The notes: generated by a model from the sequence alone, not told the origin. Positions 1 through 29,459 are shown, counted from the first letter of the stretch. The stretch: 64,000 nucleotides of DNA from Escherichia coli (GCF_029227855.1 NZ_CP074356.1); one strand, 5' to 3'. A program made the numbers and translations.

Positions 1-102
1 GACACTGCGCTGGATCGTCTGATGCAGGGTGCACCGGCACCGCTGGCTGCAGGTAACCCGGCATCTGATGCCGTTAACGATTTGCTGAACACACCAGTGT
101 AA
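1..102 (+). CDS. C-terminal end of head scaffolding/protease gene (lambda C/Nu3-like); 5' end lies outside the window
   Basis: Open frame from window start to TAA at 100-102; lies immediately upstream of D as in the lambda head operon; only 33 codons visible. Confidence 0.55.
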   Translation, partial: DTALDRLMQGAPAPLAAGNPASDAVNDLLNTPV

Positions 103-111
103 GGGATGTTT

Positions 112-444
112 ATGACGAGCAAAGAAACCTTTACCCATTACCAGCCGCTGGGCAACAGTGACCCGGCTCATACCGCAACCGCGCCAGGCGGATTGAGTGC
201 GAAAGCGCCTGCAATGACCCCGCTGATGCTGGACACCTCCACCCGTAAGCTGGTTGCGTGGGATGGCACCACCGACGGTGCTGCTGTCGGCATTCTTGCT
301 GTTGCTGCTGACCAGACCAGCACCACGCTGACGTTCTACAAGTCCGGCACGTTCCGTTATGAGGATGTGCTCTGGCCGGAGGCTGCCAGCGACGAGACGA
401 AAAAACGGACCGCGTTTGCCGGAACGGCAATCAGCATCGTTTAA
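112..444 (+). CDS. D: head decoration protein D (lambda gpD)
   Basis: ORF 106-444; product from ATG 112 begins [11 protein letters not shown] and matches lambda gpD over its length (110 aa). Confidence 0.93.
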
Positions 445-499
445 CCTTACCCTTCATCACTAAAGGCCGCCTGTGCGGCTTTTTTTACGGGATTTTTTT

Positions 500-775
500 A
501 TGTCGATGTACACAACCGCCCAGCTGCTGGCGGCAAATGAGCAGAAATTTAAGTTTGATCCGCTGTTTCTGCGTCTCTTTTTCCGTGAGAGCTATCCCTT
601 CACCACGGAGAAAGTCTATCTCTCACAAATTCCGGGGCTGGTAAACATGGCGCTGTACGTTTCGCCGATTGTTTCCGGTGAGGTTATCCGCTCCCGTGGC
701 GGCTCCACCTCTGAATTTACGCCGGGATATGTCAAGCCGAAGCACTTAGCATGGCTTTCTGAGGCTTTCGTGTAG
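500..775 (+). pseudogene. E: major capsid protein E, 5' fragment (first ~82 codons), interrupted at 735-744 by an inserted element
   Basis: From ATG 500 the product MSMYTTAQLLAANEQKF...GYVKPKH is lambda gpE N-terminus; after the core at 735-744 the frame continues into unrelated sequence and stops at 775. Confidence 0.92.
735..744. repeat. attL core / target-site direct repeat (AGCCGAAGCA)
   Basis: Identical 10-mer recurs at 11864-11873; prophage E sequence resumes exactly after the right copy. Confidence 0.85.
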
Positions 776-872
776 CTGCTGGTTTTTACACTTAATCTTT
801 TGATAATAAAGAATAAGTTTATCTGGCGCTTTCACTGAATTTTCCTCGTTATCTGTGTGTTGCAATCATCTC

Positions 873-892
873 TGTATTGCAGCTTGTATTGC
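873..892 (+). promoter_or_regulatory. tandem TGTATTGC motifs (TGTATTGCAGCTTGTATTGC), putative integrase arm-type binding sites overlapping the int 5' region
   Basis: Near-identical 20-mer (TGTATTGCAGCATGTATTGC) recurs at 11769-11788 just inside the other att core. Confidence 0.5.
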
Positions 893-907
893 TTTTTGGG
901 GCTAAAA

Positions 908-2143
908 ATGGCTGGCGAGAACAAACTGAGCGACAAAGCGCTTAAAGGATATCTGGGGAAACCCAGAGAAAAGCAGATCACCATTGCTGATGGAAAGGGG
1001 CTTTCTATTCGTGTGAGTACTAAAGGGGCTGTGAGCTTTGTTTTCTTCTACAGGTTAGCAGGTGGCCGGGCTGCTCCGGTCTGGCTAACGTTGGGTAAAT
1101 ATCCTGATATGTCACTCAAACAGGCAAGGGAAAAGCGCGACGAGTGCCGTGGTTGGTTGGCTGACAAACGTGATCCGCGTATCCAGATTAAGATTCAGGC
1201 TGAAGAACGCTTAAAGCCGGTCACAGTGGAGGATGCACTAAATTACTGGTATGAAAATTACTGTAAGGTGCGTCGTAAAACTCATGCTGTAACGCTTGGC
1301 AGATTTCGAAAGCATATCTTTCCCTATATCGGTCATTTGCCCGTAAATGACACTCACCTATATGAATAGCTGGACTGTTTTGACCGAATTAAACGTAATG
1401 CACCAGTTATGGCGGCGTATGTTTTTTCTGACACTAAATTAGCTCTTCGTTTTTGTCGGGTACGCCAGTACGCGACGTGTGATGCTTTAAAGGATTTGCG
1501 CATGAGTGATGTGGGGCAGATTGCAGGTAAGCGGGATCGGGTTCTGGATGAGGTCGAACTCGGCCAGCTCTGGAAGGCAATTTTTGTCGAGCCTGATTTA
1601 AAACTAATGTCTGAATACACGCGAAAAATGTTTGTGCTTTGTACAGTATTTGGATGTCGAATGAGTGAAGCCCGATTATCAGAATGGAGCGAATGGGATC
1701 TCGAAAGTTGGGTTTGGACTGTGCCAAAAGATCACTCAAAAACTGGTGTTGAAATCGTCAGACCAGTACCTGAAATTCTACGACAGTGGGTAACGGATGT
1801 TCACGAAGAGACAAAACATACTGGTTATGTGCTGGGAAGTCTGCGAATTAGAGAAAGCGTAAGCAAGATTGGGGGGAAAATCGGTAAACGTTTGGGCCAT
1901 GAAAAACAATGGTCACTACACGACCTTAGAAGAACGCTATCTACTCATCTAAGTGATCTCGGTGTTGAATTTTATGTAGTAGAACAACTGTTAGGCCATG
2001 CGCTACCTGGCGTGGCAGGTGTTTACAACCGGAGTAAGTTTATGGCTAAAAAACTGGATGCTCTGGAACTCTGGACTACATATCTCAATAGCATCGCAGC
2101 TGCTGATTCAAAAGTGACAATCCTCAAACAAAAGGCTGGTTAG
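908..2143 (+). pseudogene. int: P4-type tyrosine integrase interrupted by an in-frame amber codon (TAG at 1367-1369)
   Basis: ORFs 857-1369 and 1409-2143 are in the same frame, separated by one TAG; N-terminal arm-binding region (MAGENKLSDKALKGYLGK...) and C-terminal catalytic region with HDLRRT, LLGHA and VYNRS (Tyr) motifs. Confidence 0.85.
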
Positions 2144-2144
2144 C

Positions 2145-2375
2145 ATGAAAAAAATGGCAATTGTTGATAAAAAGGGTCTGGAGTACATTCCTAACATTGA
2201 CCGAATGATCCGTGAGAAAGAATGTCGGGAGCTAACTACTCTTGCGAACAGCACACGCTGGAAGCTGGAGAAGGAAGGAAAATTTCCTAAGCGGATCAAG
2301 ATTGGTTCCACTGCTGTTGCATATCGTCTTTCAGAAGTGCAGGCATGGATTCGAGGTGAGTGGGAAACAACTTAA
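2145..2375 (+). CDS. alpA: AlpA-family HTH transcriptional regulator / excisionase-like protein
   Basis: 76-aa product with AlpA-type HTH (RIKIGSTAVAYRLSEVQAWI); immediately downstream of int as in P4-like and PICI elements. Confidence 0.8.
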   Translation: MKKMAIVDKKGLEYIPNIDRMIREKECRELTTLANSTRWKLEKEGKFPKRIKIGSTAVAYRLSEVQAWIRGEWETT

Positions 2376-2382
2376 CTATTAG

Positions 2383-3213
2383 GTGGGCATTGTGGCTATA
2401 TTTCATTATACAGATCTTTTTGGTTTGAAAGGTATATTAGACTCTAATTCTTTATGGGCTACAAACATATATTTCTTAAATGATAAAGAGGAGTCTAACC
2501 ATGGATGTGAATGCTTTCGAAATACAATTAAAATAGTTGATGACAATATCATTCCAAAAGATAAGAAAACTATTTTGCTCAAGTCTCTTGACATGTATGA
2601 GAAAGGGAGGTTACAAAAAGAAAAAGGGATTGATAAACATGTTTATAGCATCTCTTTTTGTAAGGAAAACGATAAGTTAAGTCAGTGGAGAGGTTACGGA
2701 AATAAACAGGGTGTTTGCATTGAGTTTGATGCGGATGAACTTGTGAGCTTTTCTCAAAATATTTATTTAAATTGTGTTGCACATGATGTTATATATTCAA
2801 ATAATAACGATATTACTAAGATGAGTAAGGAGTTGGGAGAGTTTTTTTCTTGTAATGGTATTAATATTAAAGAAATGAATGATCATTTTGTAACAATGGT
2901 CTCTACGTATCAATTTATATCTAAATACATCCCATTTTTTAAACATCCTAGTTTTATCGAAGAGAATGAATTTAGATTGGTATTTACTCCGTGGATGCAA
3001 ATGCCAGATGTGCACTTCAGAATAAATAATAATGGGATCATCCCTTATATCATCATTGATAATAAAGATAATAGAAAGTTACCAATTAAAAGCATTACAA
3101 TTGGCCCGACAAACGATTATGATTTCATTGAGGCTGGTATAAAAATGTTCTTGGATTCAAGAGGATTTAGTTCTGTGGAAATTAAATCCTCATCAATTCC
3201 ATTCAGGGGGTAA
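2383..3213 (+). CDS. uncharacterised 276-aa protein, AT-rich accessory gene (candidate defence/abortive-infection cargo)
   Basis: Long ORF with GTG start at 2383 (alternative GTG at 2392 has AGGTGG 5 nt upstream); visibly AT-rich relative to int and primase; no confident family match by eye. Confidence 0.6.
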   Translation: MGIVAIFHYTDLFGLKGILDSNSLWATNIYFLNDKEESNHGCECFRNTIKIVDDNIIPKDKKTILLKSLDMYEKGRLQKEKGIDKHVYSISFCKENDKLSQWRGYGNKQGVCIEFDADELVSFSQNIYLNCVAHDVIYSNNNDITKMSKELGEFFSCNGINIKEMNDHFVTMVSTYQFISKYIPFFKHPSFIEENEFRLVFTPWMQMPDVHFRINNNGIIPYIIIDNKDNRKLPIKSITIGPTNDYDFIEAGIKMFLDSRGFSSVEIKSSSIPFRG

Positions 3214-3344
3214 GGATTAACACTTTTAATCTATGATATTATAAAAATGGTGGATAAAGGCGACCAGAATTGGTCGCCAATGTGAGTATATAGTTAGCCT
3301 TAATCAGAATACGAGGTTATCGCCTGATAGGCAATGTGAACAGT

Positions 3345-3701
3345 TCAATATTTAGGTGGTTCAACAAGAGCGTTTATCATTGCTCTCAAATTATCGCGAA
3401 CACTTATCCAAGTCTGTTCTGCTCGTTCTAACTCATCAGTGTACAACTTTAATGTTTTATCTATGCCATATGTGGCTATTAAATTTATAGCTTCTTGTAA
3501 TTTTTCAGGATTATTCCTTCTTGGGGGAGTGAATATACCACGGATTTTTCCGGTAATTAAAGCTTTACGGTGTCTACATAGAATACCTTTACTTCCTGCT
3601 GGACAATTACAAGTCATGATTAGCGAGCCAGAATCGTTTGATACAGTGACTATGTATACATCCAAACTACTGCTACTTGTTGCGAAGAATTCGTATTTCA
3701 T
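3345..3701 (-). CDS. SWIM-type zinc-finger protein (118 aa)
   Basis: CxC...CxH motif (CNCPAGSKGILCRH); AAGGAG Shine-Dalgarno about 8 nt upstream of the ATG; downstream of the Arc-like gene on the same strand. Confidence 0.6.
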   Translation of the reverse strand: MKYEFFATSSSSLDVYIVTVSNDSGSLIMTCNCPAGSKGILCRHRKALITGKIRGIFTPPRRNNPEKLQEAINLIATYGIDKTLKLYTDELERAEQTWISVRDNLRAMINALVEPPKY

Positions 3702-3728
3702 GTGTTAGCTCCTTGACTTCAATTATTC

Positions 3729-3920
3729 TTATCCTTTTGGTTCAATACCGCGCCGTAGCAGCTCTTTGCGCCCTAATTCTTTAAGCCAGTTGGCTAGGCT
3801 TATGCCGTCGCTCTGCGCTTCTTTGTCGAATTGCTCTTTTAGCTCTGGAGAAATTCGCATTCTGAATTGTGGAGATTGCCCATCACCCTTAGGACTTTTA
3901 TCGCGTTTGATCGTTGACAA
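3729..3920 (-). CDS. Arc/MetJ-type ribbon-helix-helix DNA-binding protein (candidate satellite repressor)
   Basis: C-terminal part ...PQFRMRISPELKEQFDKEAQSDGISLANWLKELGRKEL resembles Arc repressor; start uncertain (TTG at 3920 with AGGTGG upstream, or ATG further in; ORF track gives 3729-4043); divergent from the + strand operon that starts at 4060. Confidence 0.55.
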   Translation of the reverse strand: MSTIKRDKSPKGDGQSPQFRMRISPELKEQFDKEAQSDGISLANWLKELGRKELLRRGIEPKG

Positions 3921-4059
3921 GTGACCACCTATTGAATTAGCCTTTTCATTGTTAGGTGACCACCTTAACACGGGGGCACTTAAAAAAGCAAAGCCCGAAG
4001 GTGCTGGGAACACCAACGGGCTTCTAACCACCAACGATAGCAACAGTATCGAGGTAGCT

Positions 4060-4263
4060 ATGAGAAATCATACCACACACCCGCAAGGGCGGGACCCGCA
4101 CAACCTGAATAAATACATCTGGCGTTTTATCGCCTTGAGTACGGCACAACCGCGCATGATTACCATCGAGGCCATCAGCGAACAGGAAGCCCGCCAGCAA
4201 TCCCCAACTGGCTGCGTGATGGTATTCGCCGCCCGTATTCGTCAGGAGGTGTGCCGTGCTTAA
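4060..4263 (+). CDS. hypothetical small protein (first gene of operon leading to primase)
   Basis: ATG 4060 preceded by GAGG; in frame with ORF 3949-4263. Confidence 0.45.
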   Translation: MRNHTTHPQGRDPHNLNKYIWRFIALSTAQPRMITIEAISEQEARQQSPTGCVMVFAARIRQEVCRA

Positions 4264-4441
4264 AACCTTCCGTGTATTTGCCCGAGCTGTTAACCCACTG
4301 GGCCACACAATTGGTATCACTCAGAACGTGAAGGCTGTTAATGTTCAGACGGCTATTGCTGCGGTGAGAAGCGAATCATCAGAATATGGCTTATCACAAG
4401 TCATTATTTCAGCAGTGTATGAATTAAAAGAGGTGCATTAA
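4256..4441 (+). CDS. hypothetical small protein (61 aa)
   Basis: ORF whose start overlaps the upstream stop (translational coupling). Confidence 0.4.
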   Translation: MLKTFRVFARAVNPLGHTIGITQNVKAVNVQTAIAAVRSESSEYGLSQVIISAVYELKEVH

Positions 4442-4632
4442 TGCAGGAAATCACATTACACGAAGCCGCTGAACGTGCGCACCAGACAGAAATTATTTGC
4501 CGCCTTCTTGAGGTATACCCGAACAAAATTACAGATGCTGATATATCCGCGCTGGCGAGCCTACTGGCGCGCCTTTCGGGAAGTGTCGCTAGTTTCCTGA
4601 TTGAGGAAGAAAGTAAGCTGGTGGGGGATTAA
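4441..4632 (+). CDS. hypothetical small protein (63 aa)
   Basis: ATG overlaps upstream stop (TAATG); co-directional operon. Confidence 0.45.
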   Translation: MQEITLHEAAERAHQTEIICRLLEVYPNKITDADISALASLLARLSGSVASFLIEEESKLVGD

Positions 4633-4854
4633 ATGAATACAGAACGGGAAGTCTTTTTTAAATTGTTAGCATGTGCAGAAAGTTCATTAACTTTAAATAA
4701 TTCAGCAAAAGCAATATTAAATATGTGGCTTGATTGCATAAATGACAATGAAGATGCAAATATTGCTTATGGCCTGTTGTCACTTATTGATGAATCAGCA
4801 GAAAAACTCAATGACGCAATAAATAGTGCCCTGCTATCAAATAAGTCGAGTTAA
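4633..4854 (+). CDS. hypothetical small protein (73 aa), AT-rich
   Basis: ORF directly abutting the upstream stop. Confidence 0.4.
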   Translation: MNTEREVFFKLLACAESSLTLNNSAKAILNMWLDCINDNEDANIAYGLLSLIDESAEKLNDAINSALLSNKSS

Positions 4855-4871
4855 GTCGAGGAATAAATAAT

Positions 4872-5171
4872 ATGGAAATGAAAAATTCTGGCTTTATTGC
4901 CAGCGGCCCCGCTCGGCCTGAATTTATGAACGGCGATATTTACCGCGATAAATACGGCGGCACGGTAACGATTAAAGGCGTGGCAGAACGGCGCATCACT
5001 TACCGCCGTGAGGGGTATAGCTATGACTGCGTGATGCCTGTTTATCAGTTCCGGCGTGATTTTTCCCTGGTATATGCCGCACCCCGCAGTAAGCCCATCA
5101 GCAGGGAAAAAGCGCGGGGAAACATCCAGAAAATGAAAAGCATGATTAACGCATTCAGGGGCAAAAAATGA
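4872..5171 (+). CDS. hypothetical protein (99 aa)
   Basis: ORF whose stop overlaps the primase start. Confidence 0.45.
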   Translation: MEMKNSGFIASGPARPEFMNGDIYRDKYGGTVTIKGVAERRITYRREGYSYDCVMPVYQFRRDFSLVYAAPRSKPISREKARGNIQKMKSMINAFRGKK

Positions 5172-6919
5172 AACTGGCACCGAACTTAAAAAAACAGCCA
5201 CGCGACAGACTGACAGAGGTAATCATCTTTGCAGGTAGTGATGCGTGGAGCCATGCGAAAGAGTGGCGGGAATGGGCGGGTAAACATATTGCCGCCGACG
5301 ATGTGCCGCCTGTCGTGCTGGCTGATGAGCAACTGAAAAATATCACCGATTACCGGATCATTGATGAAGATCGTCAGTGTGTGCGTGTTTACCGCGCAGG
5401 ACATATCACAGAGCACAGCATGACGCAGATTGTTACGTTACTGGCTGTGGCTGGAGTGAAGACCGTACACGAATACGCGGGGATTACTGACACCAGCCCA
5501 GTGGATTTATCCGAGCAGTTGCCGCGACTCAAAGAGGAATGCGAGCGTGGGGAAAGTCTGGTGCTTAATCTTCCGACGAAGCAAAAGGCGCAACTTTCAC
5601 AGATGGCAGACAGTGAACGTGCACAACTACTTGCCGATCGCTTTGATGGTGTGTGTGTTCATGCAGAAAGTGAAATCGTCCACGTATGGCGCGGCGGGGT
5701 ATGGTGTCCGGTCAGCACAATGGAGCTGAGCCGCGAAATGGTGGCGATCTATTCAGAGCACAGGGCCACGTTCAGCAAACGTGTAATCAATAACGCCGTG
5801 GAAGCGTTAAAAGTTATTGCCGACCCCATGGGGGAGCCGTCCGGTGATTTGCTACCGTTCACTAATGGTGTGCTTAACCTGAAAACGGGGGAATTTTCTC
5901 CGCACTCGCCGGAGCACTGGAGCACCACGCACAATGGCATTGAGTACACGCCACCAGTAGCAGGGGAAAACATCCGCGATAATGCGCCAAATTTCCATAA
6001 ATGGCTTGAACATGCTGCAAGAAAAGACCCGCGCAAGATGATGCGTATATGTGCCGCGTTATACATGATTATGGCGAACCGCTACGACTGGCAGATGTTC
6101 ATTGAGGCCACCGGAGACGGGGGAAGCGGTAAGAGTACATTTACCCATATTGCCACCCTGCTTGCTGGCAAACAGAACACCGTAAGCGCGGAGATGACAT
6201 CACTCGATGATGCAGGAGGGCGCGCGCAGGTTGTCGGGAGTCGTCTTATCGTCCTTGCCGATCAGCCGAAATATACGGGGGAAGGCACGGGCATCAAGAA
6301 AATCACGGGAGGCGATCCCGTTGAAATTAACCCGAAATATGAGAAGCGATTCACGACGATAATAAGGGCGGTGGTACTGGCAACCAATAACGACCCGATG
6401 ATCTTTACCGAACGGGCCGGAGGTGTGTCACGCCGTCGGGTGATTTTCCGGTTCGACAACATTGTAAGGGAGGACGAAAAAGACAAGGAATTACCGGAAA
6501 AGATAGCGGCAGAAATCCCCGTAATTATCCGCCGCTTGCTGGCTAATTTTGCTGACCCTGAAAAGGCACGGGCTTTATTACTGGAACAGCGTGACGGTGA
6601 TGAAGCTCTGGCAATAAAGCAGCAAACGGATCCGGTTGTTGAGCTTTGCGCGGCGCTGGAGTTTCTGGAGGAAGCTCGTGGGCTAATGATGGGCGGTGGT
6701 GGTGACACCGTGAAGTACACGACCAGAAACAGCCTTTACCGTGTCTATATGGCCTTCATGGCATACACAGGAAAGGGGAAATGTTTGAGCGTGAATGAGT
6801 TCGGAAAGGCTATGAGGTCAGCGGCGAAAGTTTACGGATATGAATATATTACGCGAAAAGTTAAGGGAGTCACGCAGACCAACGCAACGACTACTGATGA
6901 TTGCGATGCGTTTTTATAA
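5168..6919 (+). CDS. P4-alpha-type replication primase/helicase (phage/plasmid primase, P4 family C-terminal domain)
   Basis: 583-aa product with Walker A GDGGSGKST and surrounding blocks typical of P4-family primase C-terminal domains; followed by iterons. Confidence 0.85.
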   Translation: MKLAPNLKKQPRDRLTEVIIFAGSDAWSHAKEWREWAGKHIAADDVPPVVLADEQLKNITDYRIIDEDRQCVRVYRAGHITEHSMTQIVTLLAVAGVKTVHEYAGITDTSPVDLSEQLPRLKEECERGESLVLNLPTKQKAQLSQMADSERAQLLADRFDGVCVHAESEIVHVWRGGVWCPVSTMELSREMVAIYSEHRATFSKRVINNAVEALKVIADPMGEPSGDLLPFTNGVLNLKTGEFSPHSPEHWSTTHNGIEYTPPVAGENIRDNAPNFHKWLEHAARKDPRKMMRICAALYMIMANRYDWQMFIEATGDGGSGKSTFTHIATLLAGKQNTVSAEMTSLDDAGGRAQVVGSRLIVLADQPKYTGEGTGIKKITGGDPVEINPKYEKRFTTIIRAVVLATNNDPMIFTERAGGVSRRRVIFRFDNIVREDEKDKELPEKIAAEIPVIIRRLLANFADPEKARALLLEQRDGDEALAIKQQTDPVVELCAALEFLEEARGLMMGGGGDTVKYTTRNSLYRVYMAFMAYTGKGKCLSVNEFGKAMRSAAKVYGYEYITRKVKGVTQTNATTTDDCDAFL

Positions 6920-6933
6920 AAAATGGCAATGGT

Positions 6934-7161
6934 TATCTACCTTGTCTACCTGACTGAAAGAAAATACTTTTATTTCAATGTATTAATGCAGGTAGATAAC
7001 TATTTTTCACTGTCTACCTGTTATCTACCTTATCTACCCATTTTTGTAGACAGGTAAGGAGACGGGTAGAGATGAGGTAGACAGCTATTTGGGGCTGTCT
7101 ACCTCCCTGAAACCCGCGCCATTACTGGCCTGATAACTAATCAGGTAGACAAGGTAGACAA
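6934..7161. repeat. replication-origin iterons (about 12 copies of T[GT]TCTACC / GGTAGA[CT]A in both orientations)
   Basis: Dense cluster of the 8-9-bp motif in the non-coding stretch immediately downstream of the primase gene. Confidence 0.75.
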
Positions 7162-7208
7162 GGTGGTGGTGCACAAAAAACTTTTTAAACGAGGGGGTAA
7201 AAATAAAA

Positions 7209-7466
7209 ATGCACACTTCAGGAAAACTGAACAAACATATAAAGCCACATTACCGCGCCCTTGATATGGCTGAACACTGGCTAAGGGTGGCGATTAAGGC
7301 AATAGACCGCAACGCCGGGGAAGGATACGCGAAAGCACATCCCGAACTGATAAGCGCATTCATGACAACGGCGGCTGCAAACTTTGCCACGCTGACCGAA
7401 CGGGAGATTGCTGAAGCGGAGGAAGTGACAACAATCAATATTAAGTCCGGAGAGCAGGCAGCATGA
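7209..7466 (+). CDS. hypothetical protein (85 aa)
   Basis: ORF whose stop overlaps the ssb start (ATGA). Confidence 0.45.
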   Translation: MHTSGKLNKHIKPHYRALDMAEHWLRVAIKAIDRNAGEGYAKAHPELISAFMTTAAANFATLTEREIAEAEEVTTINIKSGEQAA

Positions 7467-7912
7467 CGGCGCAAATATCAGTTTACGGGCGGTTGGTGGA
7501 CGACCCGCAGACAAAACAGACCAGCAAGGGCACCCCCATGACGCTGGCGCGTATGGCGGTATCACTGCCCTGCAGTCAGTCGGATGACGGTCTGGCGACG
7601 TTGTGGTTATCTGTCCTGGCGTTTGGCAGACAAGCCGACGCGCTGGCAAAGCATCACAAAGGCGAACTCCTGAGCGTGGCGGGTAACATGCAGATGAGCC
7701 AGTGGACTGGACAGAACGGCGAAACGCGGCAGGGCTGGCAGGTTATCGCAGACAGCGTAATCAGTGCGCGATCGGTGCGACCGGGCGGCAAAAAAGGCCA
7801 ACAGGGGCAGGCTACTGACGCACTGAACAGAGCAAAACAACAGGCAGATCAGCAAGGAAGCCAGCCACCAGAGGGAGATAATGAGCAATGGGGAGATGAT
7901 ATCCCGTTTTAA
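7463..7912 (+). CDS. ssb: single-stranded DNA-binding protein (SSB)
   Basis: 149-aa product with OB-fold-like N-terminal region and acidic C-terminal tail ending DDIPF. Confidence 0.75.
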   Translation: MTAQISVYGRLVDDPQTKQTSKGTPMTLARMAVSLPCSQSDDGLATLWLSVLAFGRQADALAKHHKGELLSVAGNMQMSQWTGQNGETRQGWQVIADSVISARSVRPGGKKGQQGQATDALNRAKQQADQQGSQPPEGDNEQWGDDIPF

Positions 7913-8128
7913 ATATTGCCAATAAAAAAAGCCGGAAAAAATAAATTTTCCGGCATGCTACATAAATCCCGACCAAAGGGAGTGAAGATATTAACACTAA
8001 TTGTCCGCACTGAAGTTGTCACACCAAAACTTTATACAACATTGCACTCGGTTGCATGTGTTCGCATGACAAATATCGGTGATAGCATATATCCACAATT
8101 ATTTTTAATGAATGCAAAGAGGATGCGT

Positions 8129-9169
8129 ATGGTTGATTTATATTCGCCTACTCAGCTTGTACAGGTAGTTAATGCTGTAGATGTACAAAAACAACTAAAT
8201 GCGTTGTTTACCAGTTTGTTTTTTACTCGCTCGGTAATGTTTGAATCGCGCGATATTATTCTTGATACAATCGACGATCCAAATATCCCAATTGCAGCGT
8301 TTTGTTCTCCTATGGTGGGTAGTAAAGTTTCACGTGACGAAGGGTACGAATCAAAAACAATTCGTCCAGGCTATATGAAGCCGAAAAGCAGCATTGATCC
8401 AAATAAGTTAGCTGTGCGCCCTGCTGGTGTGTCACCTGAGCAATACAATGCTTTTGGGGCGCGTAATATTAAAGTTAAACAGGCGATTGTAAATCAGGCT
8501 AAAGCTATTCGTGCACGTATTGAATGGCTTGCTGTTCAGGCAATCACAACGGGGAAAAATATCATTGAGGGCGATGGTATTGAACGTTATGAGCTGGACT
8601 GGAATATAAAACCACAAAATATCATCACTCAGTCTGGCGGTACTGAGTGGTCAGGTAAGGATAAAGAAACTTTTGATCCAAATGATGATATTGAGAGCTA
8701 CGCAGAATTTAGTGAGGGCGTCACTAATATCATCATTATGGGTGGTAATGTATGGAAGAAATACCGTTCATTCAGAGCGATAAAAGAGGCTTTGGATACC
8801 CGTCGTGGTTCTAATTCCGAACTGGAAACGGCCCTTAAAGACCTTGGTGATTCGGTGAGTTTTAAAGGGTATATGGGCGATGTTGCGATTGTTGTTTACA
8901 GCGGGCGTTATACCGACGAGGACGGAACAGAAAAACATTTCCTTGATCCTGATTTGATGGTGCTTGGCAATACGGCTCTTCAGGGGATTGTCGCCTATGG
9001 CGGTATTCAGGATCCGGAGCTAATCCGAATGGGGCTGACTAAAGCCGAACTTGCACCGAAAAACTATATTGTGCCTGGTGATCCGGCTATTGAATATGTG
9101 CAGACACATTCAGCACCACAGCCAATACCGGCCCGCATCAATCGTTTTGTTACCGTTCGCATTGGCTAA
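8129..9169 (+). CDS. major capsid protein paralogue (lambda gpE-like) encoded by the satellite
   Basis: ORF 7916-9169; from ATG 8129 (GAGG upstream) the product aligns collinearly with the prophage's own E, sharing blocks ITQSGGTEWS, DTRRGS.SELETA.KDLG and GDVAIVVYSG. Confidence 0.85.
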   Translation: MVDLYSPTQLVQVVNAVDVQKQLNALFTSLFFTRSVMFESRDIILDTIDDPNIPIAAFCSPMVGSKVSRDEGYESKTIRPGYMKPKSSIDPNKLAVRPAGVSPEQYNAFGARNIKVKQAIVNQAKAIRARIEWLAVQAITTGKNIIEGDGIERYELDWNIKPQNIITQSGGTEWSGKDKETFDPNDDIESYAEFSEGVTNIIIMGGNVWKKYRSFRAIKEALDTRRGSNSELETALKDLGDSVSFKGYMGDVAIVVYSGRYTDEDGTEKHFLDPDLMVLGNTALQGIVAYGGIQDPELIRMGLTKAELAPKNYIVPGDPAIEYVQTHSAPQPIPARINRFVTVRIG

Positions 9170-9178
9170 GGGGGAGCA

Positions 9179-9520
9179 ATGGCTACTCATTACACTGAAC
9201 TCATGGCTGGCACTGAAGCACTGGTGACTACGCTGGGGATATTTTCAGCTAATAAAGGGGTAATTCCTGCATTTACGCCACTGATGCAGGAAGATGCAAC
9301 AGGTGCACTGGTGGTATGGGATGGTTCGAGCGTAGGTAAAGCGGTTTATGTTTCCGCTGTACAAATCGACACCGCGAAAAAAACACAGGCTCAGGTCTAT
9401 AAGACAGGTGTCTTAAATGTTGATGCTCTGAACTGGCCTGAGTCTGTTAAAGAACTGTCAGTAAAGGTTGCAGCGTTTGTTGGCTCAGGTATTTCTGTTC
9501 AGCCGCTGGCTCGTGTGTAA
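9179..9520 (+). CDS. head decoration protein paralogue (lambda gpD-like) encoded by the satellite
   Basis: 113-aa product alignable with prophage D at 112-444 (LVVWDGSSVGKAV versus [13 protein letters not shown]; shared C-terminal G.AISV region). Confidence 0.75.
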   Translation: MATHYTELMAGTEALVTTLGIFSANKGVIPAFTPLMQEDATGALVVWDGSSVGKAVYVSAVQIDTAKKTQAQVYKTGVLNVDALNWPESVKELSVKVAAFVGSGISVQPLARV

Positions 9521-9531
9521 AGGGGGATACA

Positions 9532-9915
9532 ATGCAGAATGATTACAATGACCTTAAGCCAATTGCCGAAATGATGTACCCGAATCAAGCTGTAGAGGAA
9601 TTAAAAGCTATCGCTGACAAAATGTGTTTAAGCGAGCGCCTTGTTGATATGAATCAGGTGATGGAAATTACAACCCTGAGTCGTCGTACACTGCTAAACC
9701 TTGAGGCTAGTGGAGAGTTCCCGGAGCGTGTGCAGGTTACGGAAGGGCGTAAGGCCTGGTATTTAAGTGAAGTGATCGACTGGATAAATAATATTCCTCG
9801 CGCTTCTGAATATTGCCGCGTACCTGTCCCAAAAAAGCCAGATGCGGCGCTATGCCTCAAGATTGAGCGTGTACGCCGCAATGCACGGGATGGTCGCTAT
9901 AAGCTGATTGGTTGA
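9532..9915 (+). CDS. AlpA-family HTH protein adjacent to cos (candidate packaging-redirection or regulatory protein)
   Basis: 127-aa product with AlpA-type HTH (ITTLSRRTLLNLEASGEFPERVQV) and a basic C-terminal extension; immediately upstream of the cos site. Confidence 0.55.
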   Translation: MQNDYNDLKPIAEMMYPNQAVEELKAIADKMCLSERLVDMNQVMEITTLSRRTLLNLEASGEFPERVQVTEGRKAWYLSEVIDWINNIPRASEYCRVPVPKKPDAALCLKIERVRRNARDGRYKLIG

Positions 9916-9923
9916 TGAAATTA

Positions 9924-9950
9924 GGACCCGCTCTGGCTGGCGGGTCCTTT
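9924..9950 (+). terminator. hairpin terminator-like element after gene 9532-9915
   Basis: GGACCCG...CGGGTCC stem followed by TTT. Confidence 0.4.
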
Positions 9951-10145
9951 CCGGCGATCCAGAACGTTACGGGGCGTCAGGCGCGCAGTTTTTCGCTATT
10001 TGTGAAAATTTTCCTGTTTAAGGCGTTTCCGTTCTTCTTCGCCGTAACTTAATGTTTTTATTAAAAACACCCCCTAAAAAGAAAGGAAACGACAGGTGCT
10101 AAAAACAGGCTTTTTGGCCTCTGTCGTTTCCTTTCTCTGGTTTTG
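9940..10145. other. lambda-type cos site (cosN-equivalent at about 9972-9983; cosB R3-I1-R2-R1 to about 10140)
   Basis: Stretch TTTTCGCTATTTGTGAAAATTTTCCTGTTTAAGGCGTTTCCGTTCTTCTTCG...AAAGAAAGGAAACGACAGGTGCT...GGCTTTTTGGCCTCTGTCGTTTCCTTTCTCTG closely matches the left end of phage lambda (cosB) from memory; cosN 12-mer reads GGGCGTCAGGCG instead of GGGCGGCGACCT; no Nu1 gene follows. Confidence 0.8.
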
Positions 10146-10513
10146 TTGCCATCCGTCGCGGTCTATCACCAGAAAAAATCTTATCCCTGAGTTGAATCAG
10201 GCCCTATTCAGAAGCGGCCAATAACGCGCCGCTAGCTTCACTTCATAGTTATGGCCTACTTCTGCGCCATTGCAATTGCTTTATGCGCCTTGATGGTGGA
10301 ATATAGAGCAAGCAGTTTGCGAATAACAAAGTTTCATATGTTTTTTGCTGTGTGGCTAGACAACTTTACAGCAGAGTTTTGTGTCAGTTCTTTATGTGTG
10401 CAAGCAAGCTTGAGGGGGAATTACTTCTGGCTGTATCTTTGCTTAAGAACAGCAATAATTTAATCATAAGGAAATGTATATAAGCCTGATTAAATTTCAG
10501 GCTTATTGAAATG

Positions 10514-11656
10514 TTAACTCCTTATTAGAGAGTAAATTCCATCCTCTTTAAGGAAGTCTATTACTTCAAAGAATGAGATAAAGAATTCCCAAGAACCAAA
10601 AGCATATGCATGAATTTCGTAAGGTGCAAAATGGAATCTAAATCCATCACTATTTATTGTGAACGAGTCTAAGTTACTATCCATGATACCCGTTGCAAAC
10701 GTACTAATGTCGTCCTCACTTGGTTTTTCACCAGTTTTCTCCCAAAATTCACGAGCTGATTCAGAGATTATTTTTTGTTTTATCTTATTAATCGCTTCTT
10801 GCTCTTTCCCTTCGGTAAATACATCCCATAAACTAAATTTGTATGCGTAGTCATCCTTGGTTATTACGAAATTACTAGTTTCAAAATGACTGTTAGGGTG
10901 TGCTGCTCCCGCACCATACCAATGTACGGAATGAAGGATGCTCATGACATTTTCGTTACAGTATGAGATGTTATAACTTTCATTATAGGAACTAGTGTAA
11001 GTGTGTTTATATTCTTCATCCCAATATGGTGTTCCTGGCCATAGTGATGTGCGTTCAGAAAAAATATGTAAAGCCGCTTTTCCTGAAAAGTAATCACTAA
11101 TGAGTTTTGCTGATTTCGGTAATGTATGGCTTTCAATTCTTGGATATGCTATTTCAATTTCATGCCCTGGGATCTTGTTATATTCTTCCTTGAAAACCTC
11201 GCTGCTAAAGTTAAATGGCCCATAAGTGATACCTTGAGATATTTCAAGTTTTTGTTGCGATGCTGCTAATCTTAAAGATCTAGATAAAATGTCCCAACCA
11301 TCATTTCTCTTAAAATCAATGAATTGGAGCTTGCTTGATATGTAGGCGGGTACTTCGCAATCATCAATAAGTAATGGTATCACGAACACATCATCTGGTT
11401 TGTAATACTTTAGTTTATCAATGGCGTCATTTATTTCGCGGCGAATATAACCATTTTTCTGAGTGCTCACTTTGCTAAGGATAAGGATTATCAAGTTTGA
11501 ATTAGCGAAGTTTTTTTGGATTTCATAATCCCAGTTTACGCCAGCGGGTATATCTTTTACATCCATCCAAGGGGAATATCCTCCACTTTTTAGCCTTTCA
11601 TAGATTTCTTCAGTTATCGTTTCATCTTCTTTTGCATGAGCAAGAAAAATTTTCAT
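10514..11656 (-). CDS. TIR-domain protein with C-terminal domain of unknown function (candidate anti-phage defence gene)
   Basis: 380-aa product; N-terminal about 135 aa looks like a TIR domain (MKIFLAHAKEDE...ILILSKVS...REINDAIDKL); C-terminal about 240 aa unassigned (contains HWYGAGAAHP motif); AT-rich; last gene before attR. Confidence 0.7.
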   Translation of the reverse strand: MKIFLAHAKEDETITEEIYERLKSGGYSPWMDVKDIPAGVNWDYEIQKNFANSNLIILILSKVSTQKNGYIRREINDAIDKLKYYKPDDVFVIPLLIDDCEVPAYISSKLQFIDFKRNDGWDILSRSLRLAASQQKLEISQGITYGPFNFSSEVFKEEYNKIPGHEIEIAYPRIESHTLPKSAKLISDYFSGKAALHIFSERTSLWPGTPYWDEEYKHTYTSSYNESYNISYCNENVMSILHSVHWYGAGAAHPNSHFETSNFVITKDDYAYKFSLWDVFTEGKEQEAINKIKQKIISESAREFWEKTGEKPSEDDISTFATGIMDSNLDSFTINSDGFRFHFAPYEIHAYAFGSWEFFISFFEVIDFLKEDGIYSLIRS

Positions 11657-11768
11657 TGAATATTCCTTTATAATTTAACTAATTAAGTGAAGGAGGCTTT
11701 ACTTGGCTGTGTTAGAAAAAATTCGGTTTGTTTTTTGTACGATGCCAAGAAGGCTTTTCCCTAACCAT

Positions 11769-11788
11769 GTATTGCAGCATGTATTGCT
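11769..11788 (+). promoter_or_regulatory. tandem TGTATTGC motifs (putative integrase arm-type sites, right arm)
   Basis: TGTATTGCAGCATGTATTGC, 19/20 identical to 873-892. Confidence 0.5.
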
Positions 11789-11863
11789 ACGTAATTCTGC
11801 ACCCTCTCATTTATAAAATAAATCTCTGTTAAATCAAGTATCTTTTTTCTATTTGACTCATGT

Positions 11864-11873
11864 AGCCGAAGCA
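11864..11873. repeat. attR core / target-site direct repeat (AGCCGAAGCA)
   Basis: Identical to 735-744; E sequence (HEVNPQMTL...) resumes from this point. Confidence 0.85.
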
Positions 11874-12699
11874 TGAGGTGAATCCGCAGATGACCCTGCG
11901 TCGCCTGCCGGATGAAGATCCGCAGAATCTGGCGGACCCGGCTTACCGCCGCCGTCGCATCATTATGCAGAACATGCGTGACGAAGAGCTGGCCATTGCC
12001 CAGGTCGAAGAGATGCAGGCAGTTTCTGCCGTGCTTAAGGGCAAATACACCATGACCGGTGAAGCCTTCGATCCGGTTGAGGTGGATATGGGCCGCAGTG
12101 AGGCGAATAACATCACGCAGTCCGGCGGCACGGAGTGGAGCAAGCGTGACAAGTCCACGTATGACCCGACCGACGATATCGAAGCCTACGCGCTGAACGC
12201 CAGCGGAGTGGTGAATATCATCGTGTTTGATCCGAAAGGCTGGGCGCTGTTCCGTTCCTTCAAAGCCGTCAAGGAGAAGCTGGATACTCGTCGCGGCTCT
12301 CATTCCGAGCTGGAGACAGCGGTGAAAGACCTGGGCAAAGCGGTGTCCTACAAGGGGATGTATGGCGATGTGGCCATCGTCGTGTATTCCGGACAGTACG
12401 TGGAAAACGGCGTCAAAAAGAACTTCCTGCCGGACAACACGATGGTGCTGGGGAACACTCAGGCACGCGGTCTGCGCACCTATGGCTGCATTCAGGATGC
12501 GGACGCACAGCGCGAAGGCATTAACTCCTCTGCCCGTTACCCGAAAAACTGGGTGACCACCGGCGATCCGGCGCGTGAGTTCACCATGATTCAGTCAGCA
12601 CCGCTGATGCTGCTGGCTGACCCTGATGAGTTCGTGTCCGTACAACTGGCGCAATCGTGGCCCTTCGGGGCCATTTTCTCTCTGTGGAGGAGTCCATGA
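11864..12699 (+). pseudogene. E: major capsid protein E, 3' fragment (about 260 codons), with the lambda stop position read as CAA
   Basis: Product ...EVNPQMTLRRLPDEDPQ...DEFVSVQLA is lambda gpE from about residue 83; 500-744 plus 11874-12654 equals 1026 nt, the lambda E length; frame runs on 15 codons to TGA at 12697-12699. Confidence 0.9.
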
Positions 12700-13091
12700 C
12701 GAAAGATGAACTGATTGTCCGTCTCCGGTCGCTGGGTGAGCAACTGAACCGTGATGTCAGCCTGACGGGGACGAAAGAAGAACTGGCGCTCCGTGTGGCA
12801 GAGCTGGAAGAGGAGCTTGATGACACGGATGACGCTGCCGGTCAGGATACCCCTCTCAGACCGGAAAATGCGCTGACCGGACATGAAAATGAGGTGGTAT
12901 CAGAGCAGCCGGATACCATGATTGATACGGCTGCTCTGGTCACGGTCGTGGCACTGGTGACGCTGCATACTGATGCACTTCACGCCACGCGGGATGAACC
13001 TGTGGCATTTGTGCTGCCGGGAACGGCGTTTCGTGTCTCTGTCGGTGTGGCAGCCGAAATGACAGAACGTGGCCTGGCCAGAATGCAATAA
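12696..13091 (+). CDS. FI: DNA-packaging/head assembly protein FI
   Basis: Product MTKDELIVRLRSLGEQLNRD... matches lambda gpFI. Confidence 0.9.
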   Translation: MTKDELIVRLRSLGEQLNRDVSLTGTKEELALRVAELEEELDDTDDAAGQDTPLRPENALTGHENEVVSEQPDTMIDTAALVTVVALVTLHTDALHATRDEPVAFVLPGTAFRVSVGVAAEMTERGLARMQ

Positions 13092-27870: not shown

Positions 27871-28911
27871 ATGGCTACATCGACAGTAATTCCTGATGAC
27901 ATCAAAACGCTAAAATCCGACGTTAGCAAATTAAAAAACGATCAAGGAAGCTACGCAACAAAATTATATGTAGACAGCAAAGATGAAATCGTTGGTGACT
28001 GGTCTGTTTCATGGTATCAGCAGGTATTGCCAACTAGCGGAGCTATATTTGGGAGAAAACTCCGCTCAACTCACAGGACGGCAGGTGTTGAGGATGCGTA
28101 TTGCGAACTATACCTCAAAAAATGGATAGACAGTCCAGGTAACGCAATGGCGCGCCTTAACCTGAACGATAACGGGACAAACATTTGCTGGGACTTTACC
28201 AACCTTTATGGCGGTACGATGATTTTTCCCGGTGACAGCGGATACCTCAAAATGGGTAACTGCCTTATGTCATACAGCAAGCGTGGAAGTAACGCGCTTA
28301 TTAAATTTGATTACACCGACACATTACAGATCAAATATGCCAATCATGGGTCAACCATGACATTAAACACACAGGGAACCGCTTATGCTGGTGTTACTGC
28401 TCAATTGTGGGGCAACTCCAGCCGTCCTGTTGTTTATGAAGTCGGTGTTGATGGTGGCGCTTATATGTTCTATGCGCAGAAAAATACCGATAACACCTAT
28501 ATGTTAAGCGTTAATGGTGCATGTCATGCCACCGCATTTAACCAGCATTCCGACCGGGATCTGAAAGACAACATTCAGGTGATCGATAATGCAACCGACC
28601 GCATCCGTAAAATGAACGGCTATACATACACGCTTAAAGAAAACGGTATGCCCTATGCTGGTGTCATTGCACAGGAAGCTCTGGAAGCAATCCCAGAAGT
28701 TGTAGGTTCCGCAATGAAATATCAGGACGGTGCGAGCGGATCGGAAGGTGAAGAAGGTGAACGTTATTACACAGTAGATTATTCTGGTGTTACTGGCTTG
28801 CTTGTTCAGGTAGCCAGAGAGTCAGACGACAGAATAACAGCACTGGAAGAAGAAAACGCAGAATTAAGACAAAGATTATCTGCAATTGATGCGGCGCTTG
28901 CGTCTAAATAA
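27871..28911 (+). CDS. tail fibre/spike protein with C-terminal intramolecular chaperone (endosialidase-chaperone-like) domain
   Basis: 346-aa product; C-terminal region (SDRDLKDNIQVIDNATDRIRKMNGYTYTLKE...YAGVIAQEA...LEEENAELRQRL) is typical of self-cleaving tail-fibre chaperone domains. Confidence 0.7.
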   Translation: MATSTVIPDDIKTLKSDVSKLKNDQGSYATKLYVDSKDEIVGDWSVSWYQQVLPTSGAIFGRKLRSTHRTAGVEDAYCELYLKKWIDSPGNAMARLNLNDNGTNICWDFTNLYGGTMIFPGDSGYLKMGNCLMSYSKRGSNALIKFDYTDTLQIKYANHGSTMTLNTQGTAYAGVTAQLWGNSSRPVVYEVGVDGGAYMFYAQKNTDNTYMLSVNGACHATAFNQHSDRDLKDNIQVIDNATDRIRKMNGYTYTLKENGMPYAGVIAQEALEAIPEVVGSAMKYQDGASGSEGEEGERYYTVDYSGVTGLLVQVARESDDRITALEEENAELRQRLSAIDAALASK

Positions 28912-28917
28912 TATTAA

Positions 28918-28940
28918 GGGGCCGAGCGCCCCGTTTTATT
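28918..28940 (+). terminator. hairpin terminator-like element after the tail fibre gene
   Basis: GGGGC-CGAGC-GCCCC followed by GTTTTATT. Confidence 0.5.
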
Positions 28941-29247
28941 GGGTAGGATGAAAATGGATATAACACCTTTCCTTCATGCGCTTTGTGCTGTGGCTGCGCA
29001 GCTACTGATTGGTCTTTTTACCGGGAACTGGGCTTACGGGGCGATAGCCGGTTGTACGTTCTTCATTGCGCGTGAACACACCCAGGCAGAATATCGCTGG
29101 ATCGAAATGTTCGGGCATGGCAAGCGAATGAATATGCCGTGGTGGGGCGGTTTTGATCCACGCGCGTGGGATGTGGCAAGCCTGATGGATTTTGCTGTGC
29201 CGGTGGTGGCGTGTCTGCTGGTCTGGCTGTTGGTTAATCGTGGGTGA
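28939..29247 (+). CDS. hypothetical small membrane protein (102 aa)
   Basis: ORF with two hydrophobic segments; prophage accessory region. Confidence 0.45.
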
Positions 29248-29459
29248 AAAAAGGTGGGCTGTATATGCAACGGAGGAAGAAACCACGTTGCTGGAAGCCT
29301 GGAAGAAGTATCGGGTGTTGCTGAACCGTGTTAATACAACAACTGCACCGGATATTGAATGGCCAACAGTACCCATTATCGAATAGTGCATTACGAACTG
29401 CAGGATATTATATGGGATAATATTCTGCAGTTTATTGGGGCTGTATTTTAAAAAGGTGT

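Follow-up and report, generated by a model that had tools for sequence, protein, structure and literature searches.

A PICI-type satellite inside gene E, the major capsid gene, of a lambda-like Escherichia coli prophage, with an amber codon in its integrase gene

In the window, by which we mean the whole 64-kb stretch of DNA that was analysed, the E gene (major capsid) of a lambda-like prophage is interrupted after position 744 and resumes at 11874, with an insert of 11.1 kb in between. E is preceded by the decoration gene D and followed by FI, tail genes and J. The features at the two borders of the insert are as follows.

112-444, plus strand: head-decoration gene D of the helper prophage, from the ORF list, directly upstream of E; relatives have a 'head decoration protein' in the same place
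500-744, plus strand: 5' part (81 codons and 2 nt) of the helper's E, the major capsid gene; in relatives, the annotation is a pseudogene for a partial major capsid protein
735-744, plus strand: attL 10-bp identity block AGCCGAAGCA, the crossover core; exact match to a block in the supplement of PMC10111431
871-893, plus strand: doubled arm motif tcTGTATTGCagctTGTATTGCt, beginning 131.5 nt downstream of the core centre
11766-11788, plus strand: doubled arm motif caTGTATTGCagcaTGTATTGCt, ending 80.5 nt upstream of the core centre
11864-11873, plus strand: attR 10-bp identity block AGCCGAAGCA, exact match
11874-12699, plus strand: 3' fragment of helper E, whose frame ends at a TGA overlapping the FI start

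Splicing of 500-744 to the sequence from 11874 onward yields a single continuous ORF, which aligns in one piece with lambda E (J02459.1, 6135-7205) at 100% coverage and 98.3% nucleotide identity. The initial annotation, which had proposed this split and suggested the splice as a check, was thus right about both break points. It had also placed the end of the 3' half near 12654, and here only the start at 11874 stands, since codon 12652-12654, at the position of the lambda E stop, is CAA instead of the TAA that relatives retain. As a result of the stop loss, the E frame continues to 12699 and gains 15 residues. The 76-mer at the lost stop has no exact match among 1,807 E. coli records. The spliced protein is identical in 338 of 341 residues to what we take to be the lambda gpE sequence. 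The helper adjoins zinT, and this location is probably the tRNA-Ser site; the right boundary of the helper was placed by inference from ORFs and annotation, and the window does not reach its left half (early region, cos, A to C).

Satellites that reside in the late genes of their helpers are known. The initial annotation took a satellite in the capsid gene of its probable helper to be an undescribed arrangement, which is incorrect: helper-embedded PICIs (HE-PICIs) were described by Tommasini, Mageeney and Williams (bioRxiv 2022; NAR Genom Bioinform 2023, PMC10111431). Their census comprises 491 HE-PICIs in 14 late-gene sites, with 201 copies in E, and some HE-PICI is present in about 5% of E. 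coli genomes. The founder is HE-PICI Eco567.11capE (11capE below), in prophage 50icd of E. coli NRG857c (PMC10111431).

The insert discussed here contains, in this order, int, alpA, a variable zone, a primase gene with ori iterons and an SSB gene, E-like capsid and D-like decoration genes, an HTH gene, a lambda-type cos region and TIR cargo. The integration, replication and late genes, from int through the second HTH gene, are on the plus strand, and the SWIM, Arc/YlcI-like and TIR accessory genes are on the minus strand.

908-2143, plus strand: tyrosine integrase of the HE-PICI clade, probable pseudogene; 411 codons, amber at 1367-1369 (W154*)
2145-2375, plus strand: alpA, excisionase / transcriptional regulator (phrog_2790; 73/76 aa against the founder AlpA)
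2383-3701, mixed strands: variable low-GC slot (30-34% GC) with DUF2971 and SWIM genes
2383-3213, plus strand: DUF2971 gene (RefSeq name)
3345-3701, minus strand: SWIM zinc-finger gene (RefSeq name)
3729-4263, mixed strands: regulatory zone (phrog_228, phrog_6196)
3729-4043, minus strand: Arc/YlcI-like gene ('YlcI/YnfO family' in the RefSeq names of relatives)
3949-4263, plus strand: Icd-like / repressor-family gene ('Icd-like' in the RefSeq names of relatives)
4256-5171, plus strand: three small conserved ORFs and a DUF4222 gene (4872-5171, by name); phrog_3672, phrog_1478, phrog_2196
5168-6919, plus strand: pri, primase / replication protein (phrog_864 DNA primase, E = 3e-161)
6928-7161, no strand assigned: probable replication origin downstream of pri; direct and inverted iterons of the GGTAGACA / TCTACC type
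7209-7466, plus strand: conserved hypothetical gene
7463-7912, plus strand: SSB; phrog_1231 and phrog_44 are given jointly for 7209-7912, i.e. for this and the preceding gene
8129-9169, plus strand: major capsid gene of the satellite itself (lambda E family; phrog_29)
9179-9520, plus strand: head-decoration gene of the satellite itself (lambda D family; phrog_49)
9532-9915, plus strand: second AlpA-like HTH regulator (phrog_2790, E = 3e-49)
9940-10146, plus strand: lambda-type cos region, cosN-like and cosB-like (nucleotide similarity to lambdoid phages)
10514-11656, minus strand: cargo gene with a TIR_2 domain and a PdaC/DUF3298 C-terminal region (Pfam)

The insert is a Gram-negative PICI-type satellite: it has int, alpA, pri with a downstream ori (from iterons only), a size in the 10-20 kb range and cos, and is without lysis or tail genes. 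The stretch at 6928-7161 probably acts as ori, judging from its iterons (repeat families D2, D16, I1, I4 and I13), and the published layout of Gram-negative PICIs has ori downstream of pri. The satellite capsid protein is 42% identical to that encoded by the interrupted E (BLASTP, 147/349), and its D-like protein is 38% identical to helper D. Some 18-kb relatives have terminase, portal and protease genes, which are absent from this copy. The cos segment, 207 bp in length, is about 90-92% identical to unannotated stretches in lambdoid phage records; when the whole element was compared with the phage collection, no record carried it, and only this cos-like segment matched. For 11capE, a 258-bp cos-like match has been reported (PMC10111431). 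BLAST found nothing corresponding to the slot at 2383-3701 in the locus of the founder, which has another hypothetical gene after alpA, and the NCBIfam search gave no match for either the DUF2971 or the SWIM gene. Some HE-PICIs carry the Rfam immunity RNAs C4 and isrK (PMC10111431); an Rfam scan of 1-13000 at E <= 0.1 found no match, and hence no C4/isrK-type immunity RNA was detected. Consensus scans for promoters and terminators are uninformative, because the counts were no higher than in shuffled sequence; no strong plus-strand terminator was found by consensus scan between the 5' fragment of E and int.

The attachment sites are characteristic of HE-PICIs. Within the window, exactly two copies of the 10-mer AGCCGAAGCA are present, one at 735-744 and the other at 11864-11873. 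By itself the pair is weak evidence, because at least two copies were found in 5 of 100 shuffles. Its weight comes from the fact that each copy sits precisely on one of the two breaks in E, where the initial annotation had seen a perfect repeat bounding the insert. The supplement to the HE-PICI paper lists the identity block agccgaagca for the site group E_Phage_cap_E_80, also written E:Phage_cap_E:80 (Supplementary File 1, PMC10111431), and this exact 10-mer is present at attL and attR. The near-identical blocks noticed just inside both cores are also genuine: TGTATTGCNNNNTGTATTGC is found at 873-892 and 11768-11787, both on the plus strand, with zero copies expected from shuffles. In HE-PICIs, copies of the doubled motif tgTGTATTGCantgTGTATTGCa flank the attP centre, at 81 +/- 2 bp on its upstream and 132 +/- 2 bp on its downstream side (PMC10111431); here the motifs are co-oriented, at 80.5 and 131.5 nt from the core centre. 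The predicted recombination products would be a restored E with …GTCAAGCCGAAGCATGAGGTG… and a circular attP with …CATGTAGCCGAAGCACTTAGC…. The satellite's own capsid gene has AGCCGAAAAG instead of AGCCGAAGCA at the equivalent site.

We therefore identify 745-11873 as an HE-PICI of the E:Phage_cap_E:80 site group, a close relative of 11capE, inserted co-oriented into E of a lambda-like prophage, with a probability of about 95%. The insertion is in a late gene, with E split at 744/11874 between D upstream and FI, tail genes and J downstream. The Integration, Bro, Replication and Late zones are ordered in HE-PICIs (PMC10111431); three of them, Integration, Replication and Late, are clear here, and the place of the second is taken by the DUF2971, SWIM, Arc/YlcI-like and Icd-like genes. 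Both halves of the integrase match the PHROG integrase with consecutive profile coordinates, and the protein is identical in 407 of 411 residues to the 11capE integrase (WP_000896726.1), so that membership of the HE-PICI clade needs no tree; the gene bears a nonsense codon. Among 5,426 complete E. coli genomes, 172 share this attL junction. The int segment is present in 175 genomes, which indicates that the element is almost always at the E site. The junction carriers are not clonal copies of one event, as hosts, chromosomal positions and cargo all vary. Site-specific integration of a satellite into the capsid gene of its probable helper, as originally proposed, is the right reading, in agreement with the published experiments.

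For 11capE, precise excision with the predicted attB and attP junctions was observed after mitomycin C treatment, by qPCR and deep sequencing over an induction time course, which is the kind of experiment that the initial annotation had suggested; neither 11capE nor helper virions were ever recovered (PMC10111431). Of the following steps, the first three were demonstrated with 11capE by Tommasini et al., and the fourth is inferred. In the lysogen, the satellite is silent and E is split. Upon SOS induction, the composite of prophage and satellite excises and replicates as one unit. Later, the satellite tyrosine integrase recombines attL and attR within the 10-bp core, probably assisted by AlpA, with the four TGTATTGC half-sites as probable arm-type binding sites, and with int-alpA probably expressed from helper late transcription through D and the 5' part of E. 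This releases a circular satellite and restores E. Finally, the satellite would replicate from its own pri/ori and be packaged by the helper terminase, via the lambda-type cos, into helper-derived particles, to which its E-like and D-like proteins may contribute.

Whether this copy can follow the same path depends on its integrase. Codon 154 is an in-frame TAG here and TGG in relatives, including NZ_CM136153.1, and the amber allele was found in none of the 175 genomes that carry a related int segment. The initial annotation had correctly placed a tyrosine integrase next to the left repeat, but the gene is not intact. Its expectation that excision would restore E likewise holds in silico, but excision is probably beyond this copy alone, as W154* has probably cost it autonomous excision. 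As the sequence reads, this copy is most likely stuck, and helper E would remain split unless an intact integrase, such as WP_094308187.1, comes in trans. The amber codon is possibly a sequencing error. Taken as it stands, it is an example of decay that is consistent with the remark on 'abandoned' HE-PICIs in the original description (PMC10111431).

It is unlikely that the copy is nevertheless fully functional, with the amber codon either a base-calling error or bypassed, by suppression or by a second HE-PICI integrase of the same genome acting in trans, and with excision and the restoration of E still taking place. The attachment cores and both arm motifs are perfect, every other compared ORF in the element is full length and without internal stop, and the region around the amber codon differs from the consensus 61-mer by a single base, all of which would fit a working element. 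However, the given sequence reads TAG without ambiguity, the lost E stop is a second private change at the locus that fits relaxed selection, and the 64-kb window shows no second integrase of the HE-PICI clade.

The cargo gene lies in a region of low GC content (35-36%), and its product is identical in all 379 compared residues to the TIR-domain protein WP_000688840.1 of IAI39. The main text of a survey of E. coli TIR proteins (PMC11350192) mentions neither this protein nor IAI39. The attR-adjacent slot differs among relatives, which have HEPN/DUF262, Abi-family or other genes in this place. PADLOC returned only weak or TIR-domain-limited matches for the accessory genes, and no known defence system can therefore be assigned. 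The 2023 HE-PICI paper does not discuss the attR-side slot as a defence hotspot (PMC10111431). We advance only as a doubtful possibility that this copy is a naturally 'locked' HE-PICI, in which the private amber codon fixes the satellite in E and permanently disables the helper capsid gene, the host would keep the composite as a carrier of accessory genes, chiefly the TIR-PdaC/DUF3298 gene, and the attR-side slot would be an HE-PICI defence hotspot. The variable cargo slots may be of interest for defence-hotspot mining, but this is a side issue.

It is very improbable that the element is not a classical Gram-negative PICI but a P4-like satellite or a capsid-forming PICI (cfPICI). The P4-type primase, the Icd-like gene and the AlpA homologue, together with the element's own capsid and decoration genes, could be read in this way. 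However, no element ORF of at least 55 aa has a PHROG match to Sid, Psu or Delta, the P4 functions in capsid-size redirection and late transactivation, three small ORFs being without assigned function. A cfPICI has a complete head module of capsid, protease, portal, head-tail adaptors and small terminase. Here, capsid and decoration genes are present, but portal, protease, terminase and head-tail adaptor genes are all absent, so that the element is unable to form a capsid by itself. Both the integrase and the att architecture are those of the HE-PICI clade. A transposon-like insertion with a 10-bp target-site duplication, or an assembly artefact, would account for the short direct repeat that flanks the insert, but is as good as ruled out by the identical junction in 172 independent complete genomes, the listed identity block and the published reads that show conservative site-specific excision (PMC10111431), while the insert has a tyrosine-integrase and arm-site architecture and neither a transposase nor terminal inverted repeats were found in it.

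The biology of a satellite that holds its helper's capsid gene hostage, and frees it only after its own replication, is already published; the window adds one HE-PICI with a different helper location and different cargo. Compared with 11capE, the element has the same target codon region of E and position of the 10-bp block, the same doubled TGTATTGC arm motif with the same spacing, and the same overall order and size, about 11.1 kb. The int-alpA region is 97.2% and the capsid-decoration-HTH-cos region 97.5% identical at the nucleotide level, amino acid identity is 99% or higher for the capsid, decoration and HTH proteins, and SSB is identical in 142 of 149 residues. In contrast, the primase is identical in just 284 of 607 residues, and the zone after alpA differs. 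The core is AGCCGAAGCA, which is listed for other members, whereas the founder has aacccaagca. The cargo is TIR-PdaC/DUF3298 instead of HEPN and DUF262, the helper is located by zinT instead of icd, and only the element described here has the amber codon in its integrase.

With Gram-negative PICIs such as EcCICFT073 (Fillol-Salom et al. 2018, 2019), the element shares the int-alpA-pri/ori layout, the 10-20 kb size, lambdoid helpers, cos-based packaging and a capsid-family gene, which those elements often carry. They integrate in chromosomal genes and interact with their helpers only in trans, whereas the element here is inside the helper capsid gene. The satellite phage P4 is similar in its primase family, Icd-like region, AlpA homologue and P4-type integrase superfamily, but the element is without sid, psu and delta, has a phage gene, not tRNA-Leu, as its integration site, and has a lambdoid rather than a P2-like helper. 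Finally, a comparison drawn in PMC10111431 is with regulated-gene-integrity elements, such as skin in sigK and the phages in comK and mutL, where a gene is likewise split and rebuilt by timed excision. In the present case, however, the gene that is split is part of a different mobile element, and it is the satellite that benefits from the timing.

At its left end, the window lies within the late operon of a lambda-like prophage, with gene D at 112-444 and E beginning at 500. E is interrupted after 744, and its remainder begins at 11874. The 10-mer AGCCGAAGCA is found at 735-744 and 11864-11873, precisely at both break points, as the initial annotation had described, and there is no third copy in the 64 kb. 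The pair alone is not significant (at least two copies occur in 5 of 100 shuffles), and its weight lies in the exact placement at both ends of the discontinuity of E. The halves were also expected to splice to a continuous E-like ORF, and they do. The single ORF aligns in one piece to lambda (J02459.1, 6135-7205) with 100% coverage and 98.3% identity, and likewise to 88 other phage records, so that uninterrupted "empty sites" are abundant. The near-identical blocks noticed just within both cores are co-oriented copies of TGTATTGCNNNNTGTATTGC (873-892 and 11768-11787), of which none is expected by chance. The GC content of the insert (30-53%) is below that of the flanking phage DNA (~57%). The element has the following genes and sites.

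908-2143, tyrosine integrase gene int
2145-2375, alpA, directly after int
2383-3701, low-GC (30-34%) variable slot that follows alpA and contains a DUF2971 gene and a SWIM zinc-finger gene of divergent orientation
between this slot and the primase gene, an Arc/YlcI-like gene, an Icd-like gene, small conserved ORFs and a DUF4222 gene
5168-6919, primase gene
6928-7161, cluster of direct and inverted iterons just after the primase gene, probable ori
between the iterons and the capsid gene, a conserved hypothetical gene and SSB
8129-9169, capsid gene of the lambda E family, 42% amino acid identity to the interrupted E
8366-8401, near-copy of the att core within this capsid gene, at the homologous codons PGYMKPK
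9179-9520, decoration gene of the lambda D family, 38% identity to the helper D
9532-9915, second AlpA-like regulator gene
9940-10146, 207-bp segment, with ~90-92% identity to parts of lambdoid phages that carry no annotation
10514-11656, - strand, TIR_2 and PdaC/DUF3298 gene, cargo

Portal, protease, terminase, tail and lysis genes are absent from the genes of the insert, which is therefore a satellite rather than a phage. The segment at 9940-10146, the sole part of the element with a match in phage genomes, reads as a lambda-type cos region. Its cosN-like 12-mer is GGGCGTCAGGCG, where lambda has GGGCGGCGACCT; the cos of the helper itself lies outside the window. In the satellite capsid gene, the near-copy of the core reads AGCCGAAAAG and not AGCCGAAGCA. 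This fits the remark that sequence differences at this place are expected to block self-integration (PMC10111431). P4-like satellites and cfPICIs were rejected as classifications, because their defining genes were not found (for P4, in PHROG scans of ORFs of at least 55 aa). An Rfam scan (window 1-13000, E <= 0.1) found no C4 or isrK RNA in the element.

The mechanistic part of the initial annotation, site-specific integration with excision restoring E, is sound in view of data on 11capE, the founder of a published family of helper-embedded PICIs (HE-PICIs). After mitomycin C, qPCR and deep sequencing showed that the composite of prophage and satellite is first excised and replicated; 11capE then excises precisely and late, restoring E, and the predicted attB and attP were obtained (PMC10111431). 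Virions were never recovered, the founder included (PMC10111431). By the paper's reasoning and from the present sequence, helper late transcription would run from D and the 5' fragment of E into int-alpA, since the genes are co-oriented and a consensus scan found no strong + strand terminator between the E fragment and int. Int, perhaps together with AlpA, would bind four TGTATTGC half-sites, the satellite would use its own primase and ori for replication, and the helper terminase would package it via the cos-like site.

In the present copy, codon 154 of int (1367-1369, in frame) is TAG, versus TGG in relatives (W154*). The exact amber 61-mer is found in none of the 175 complete E. coli genomes with the int segment, all of which differ by one base, and the allele is therefore private. 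A product ending at this codon would have no catalytic domain, one restarted internally at 1409 would have neither the arm-binding nor the core-binding part, and autonomous excision has probably been lost. Part of the residual interest of this locus is that the integrase has decayed and the satellite is probably locked in place as a result, although this would not surprise a specialist. The helper E has also lost its stop codon, with CAA instead of TAA at 12652-12654 and three more substitutions in the following 30 bp, a hairpin region. The frame is extended by 15 residues (12652-12699) to a TGA overlapping the FI start. TAA is retained in three relatives, L001, L003 (the founder) and IAI39, and the lost-stop sequence has no exact match among 1,807 E. 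coli records.

Strain JNEC-KY178 shares the chromosomal backbone of 40000-64000 at 100% identity and has only ~670 bp, and no prophage, between tRNA-Ser and zinT. The helper site therefore differs from the icd site of the founder's prophage. Between the helper tail-fibre region and zinT (27871-30791) are a 346-aa ORF without NCBIfam match and a GGDEF diguanylate cyclase gene (29460-30791, - strand). Given the short interval in JNEC-KY178, both probably arrived with the prophage or another island. ARAGORN found no tRNA gene in the window (1-64000), so that the tRNA-Ser must lie to its left, past the helper early region.

The attL junction, joining the 5' part of E to the int side of the element, is present in 172 of 5,426 complete E. 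coli genomes (coverage at least 80%), in carriers that differ in host and chromosomal position. With the integrase segment in 175 genomes, nearly all copies are located in E. Homologues of E occur in ~3,200 genomes at 4,536 places, and only a few per cent are thus occupied. Relatives of ~18 kb at the same site (H7, H28, H33, H39 and H40 of the genome search) have genes for the terminase large subunit, the portal and an S49 protease within the element, and correspond to HE-PICIs with an "elongated late zone" of captured helper genes (PMC10111431).

The right arm with the TIR_2-PdaC/DUF3298 cargo was found in 15 genomes. This low-GC slot adjoins attR, and in related elements holds HEPN and DUF262 genes (NRG857c), an "abortive infection family protein", a hypothetical gene or a "terminase small subunit". 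Such variety suggests that it may be a defence hotspot. Apart from its TIR domain, the cargo gene had no counterpart among known defence systems in PADLOC, which gave only weak "PDC" candidates for the slot at 2383-3701. These variable, defence-like slots are the other part of the residual interest, likewise unsurprising to a specialist. Over the 379 residues compared, the TIR protein equals WP_000688840.1 of IAI39. The IAI39 locus (NC_011750.1, 532500-546500) is an "abandoned" HE-PICI. There, the left side of the helper was lost to an IS3 element together with the 5' end of int, a stop codon interrupts the primase, and all that is left of the helper, next to tRNA-Arg, is the 3' part of E with the tail genes downstream.

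The arrangement had been considered undescribed, which does not hold: the family to which it belongs has been published with experimental support (Tommasini, Mageeney and Williams 2023) and is fairly common, and the paper is cited in the satellite literature. In this family, the motif tgTGTATTGCantgTGTATTGCa is doubled and lies on both sides of the attP centre, 81 +/- 2 bp upstream and 132 +/- 2 bp downstream (PMC10111431); here, the core centre lies 80.5 nt past the end of the upstream copy and 131.5 nt ahead of the start of the downstream one. For members of E_Phage_cap_E_80, the identity block given in the supplementary table is "agccgaagca" (PMC10111431). Compared with the founder (NC_017634.1, 1199333-1210409), nucleotide identity is 97.2% in the int-alpA region and 97.5% in the capsid-decoration-HTH-cos region, with 407/411 identical residues in the integrase, 345/346 in the capsid, 112/113 in the decoration and 126/127 in the second HTH protein. 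In contrast, only 284/607 residues of the primase are identical, the middle and cargo are not alike, and 2383-3701 has no BLAST match in the founder locus, where another hypothetical gene follows alpA. By these sequence comparisons, the element belongs to the published family and has an exchanged replication and accessory middle, which matches the "dynamic zones" of HE-PICIs (PMC10111431).
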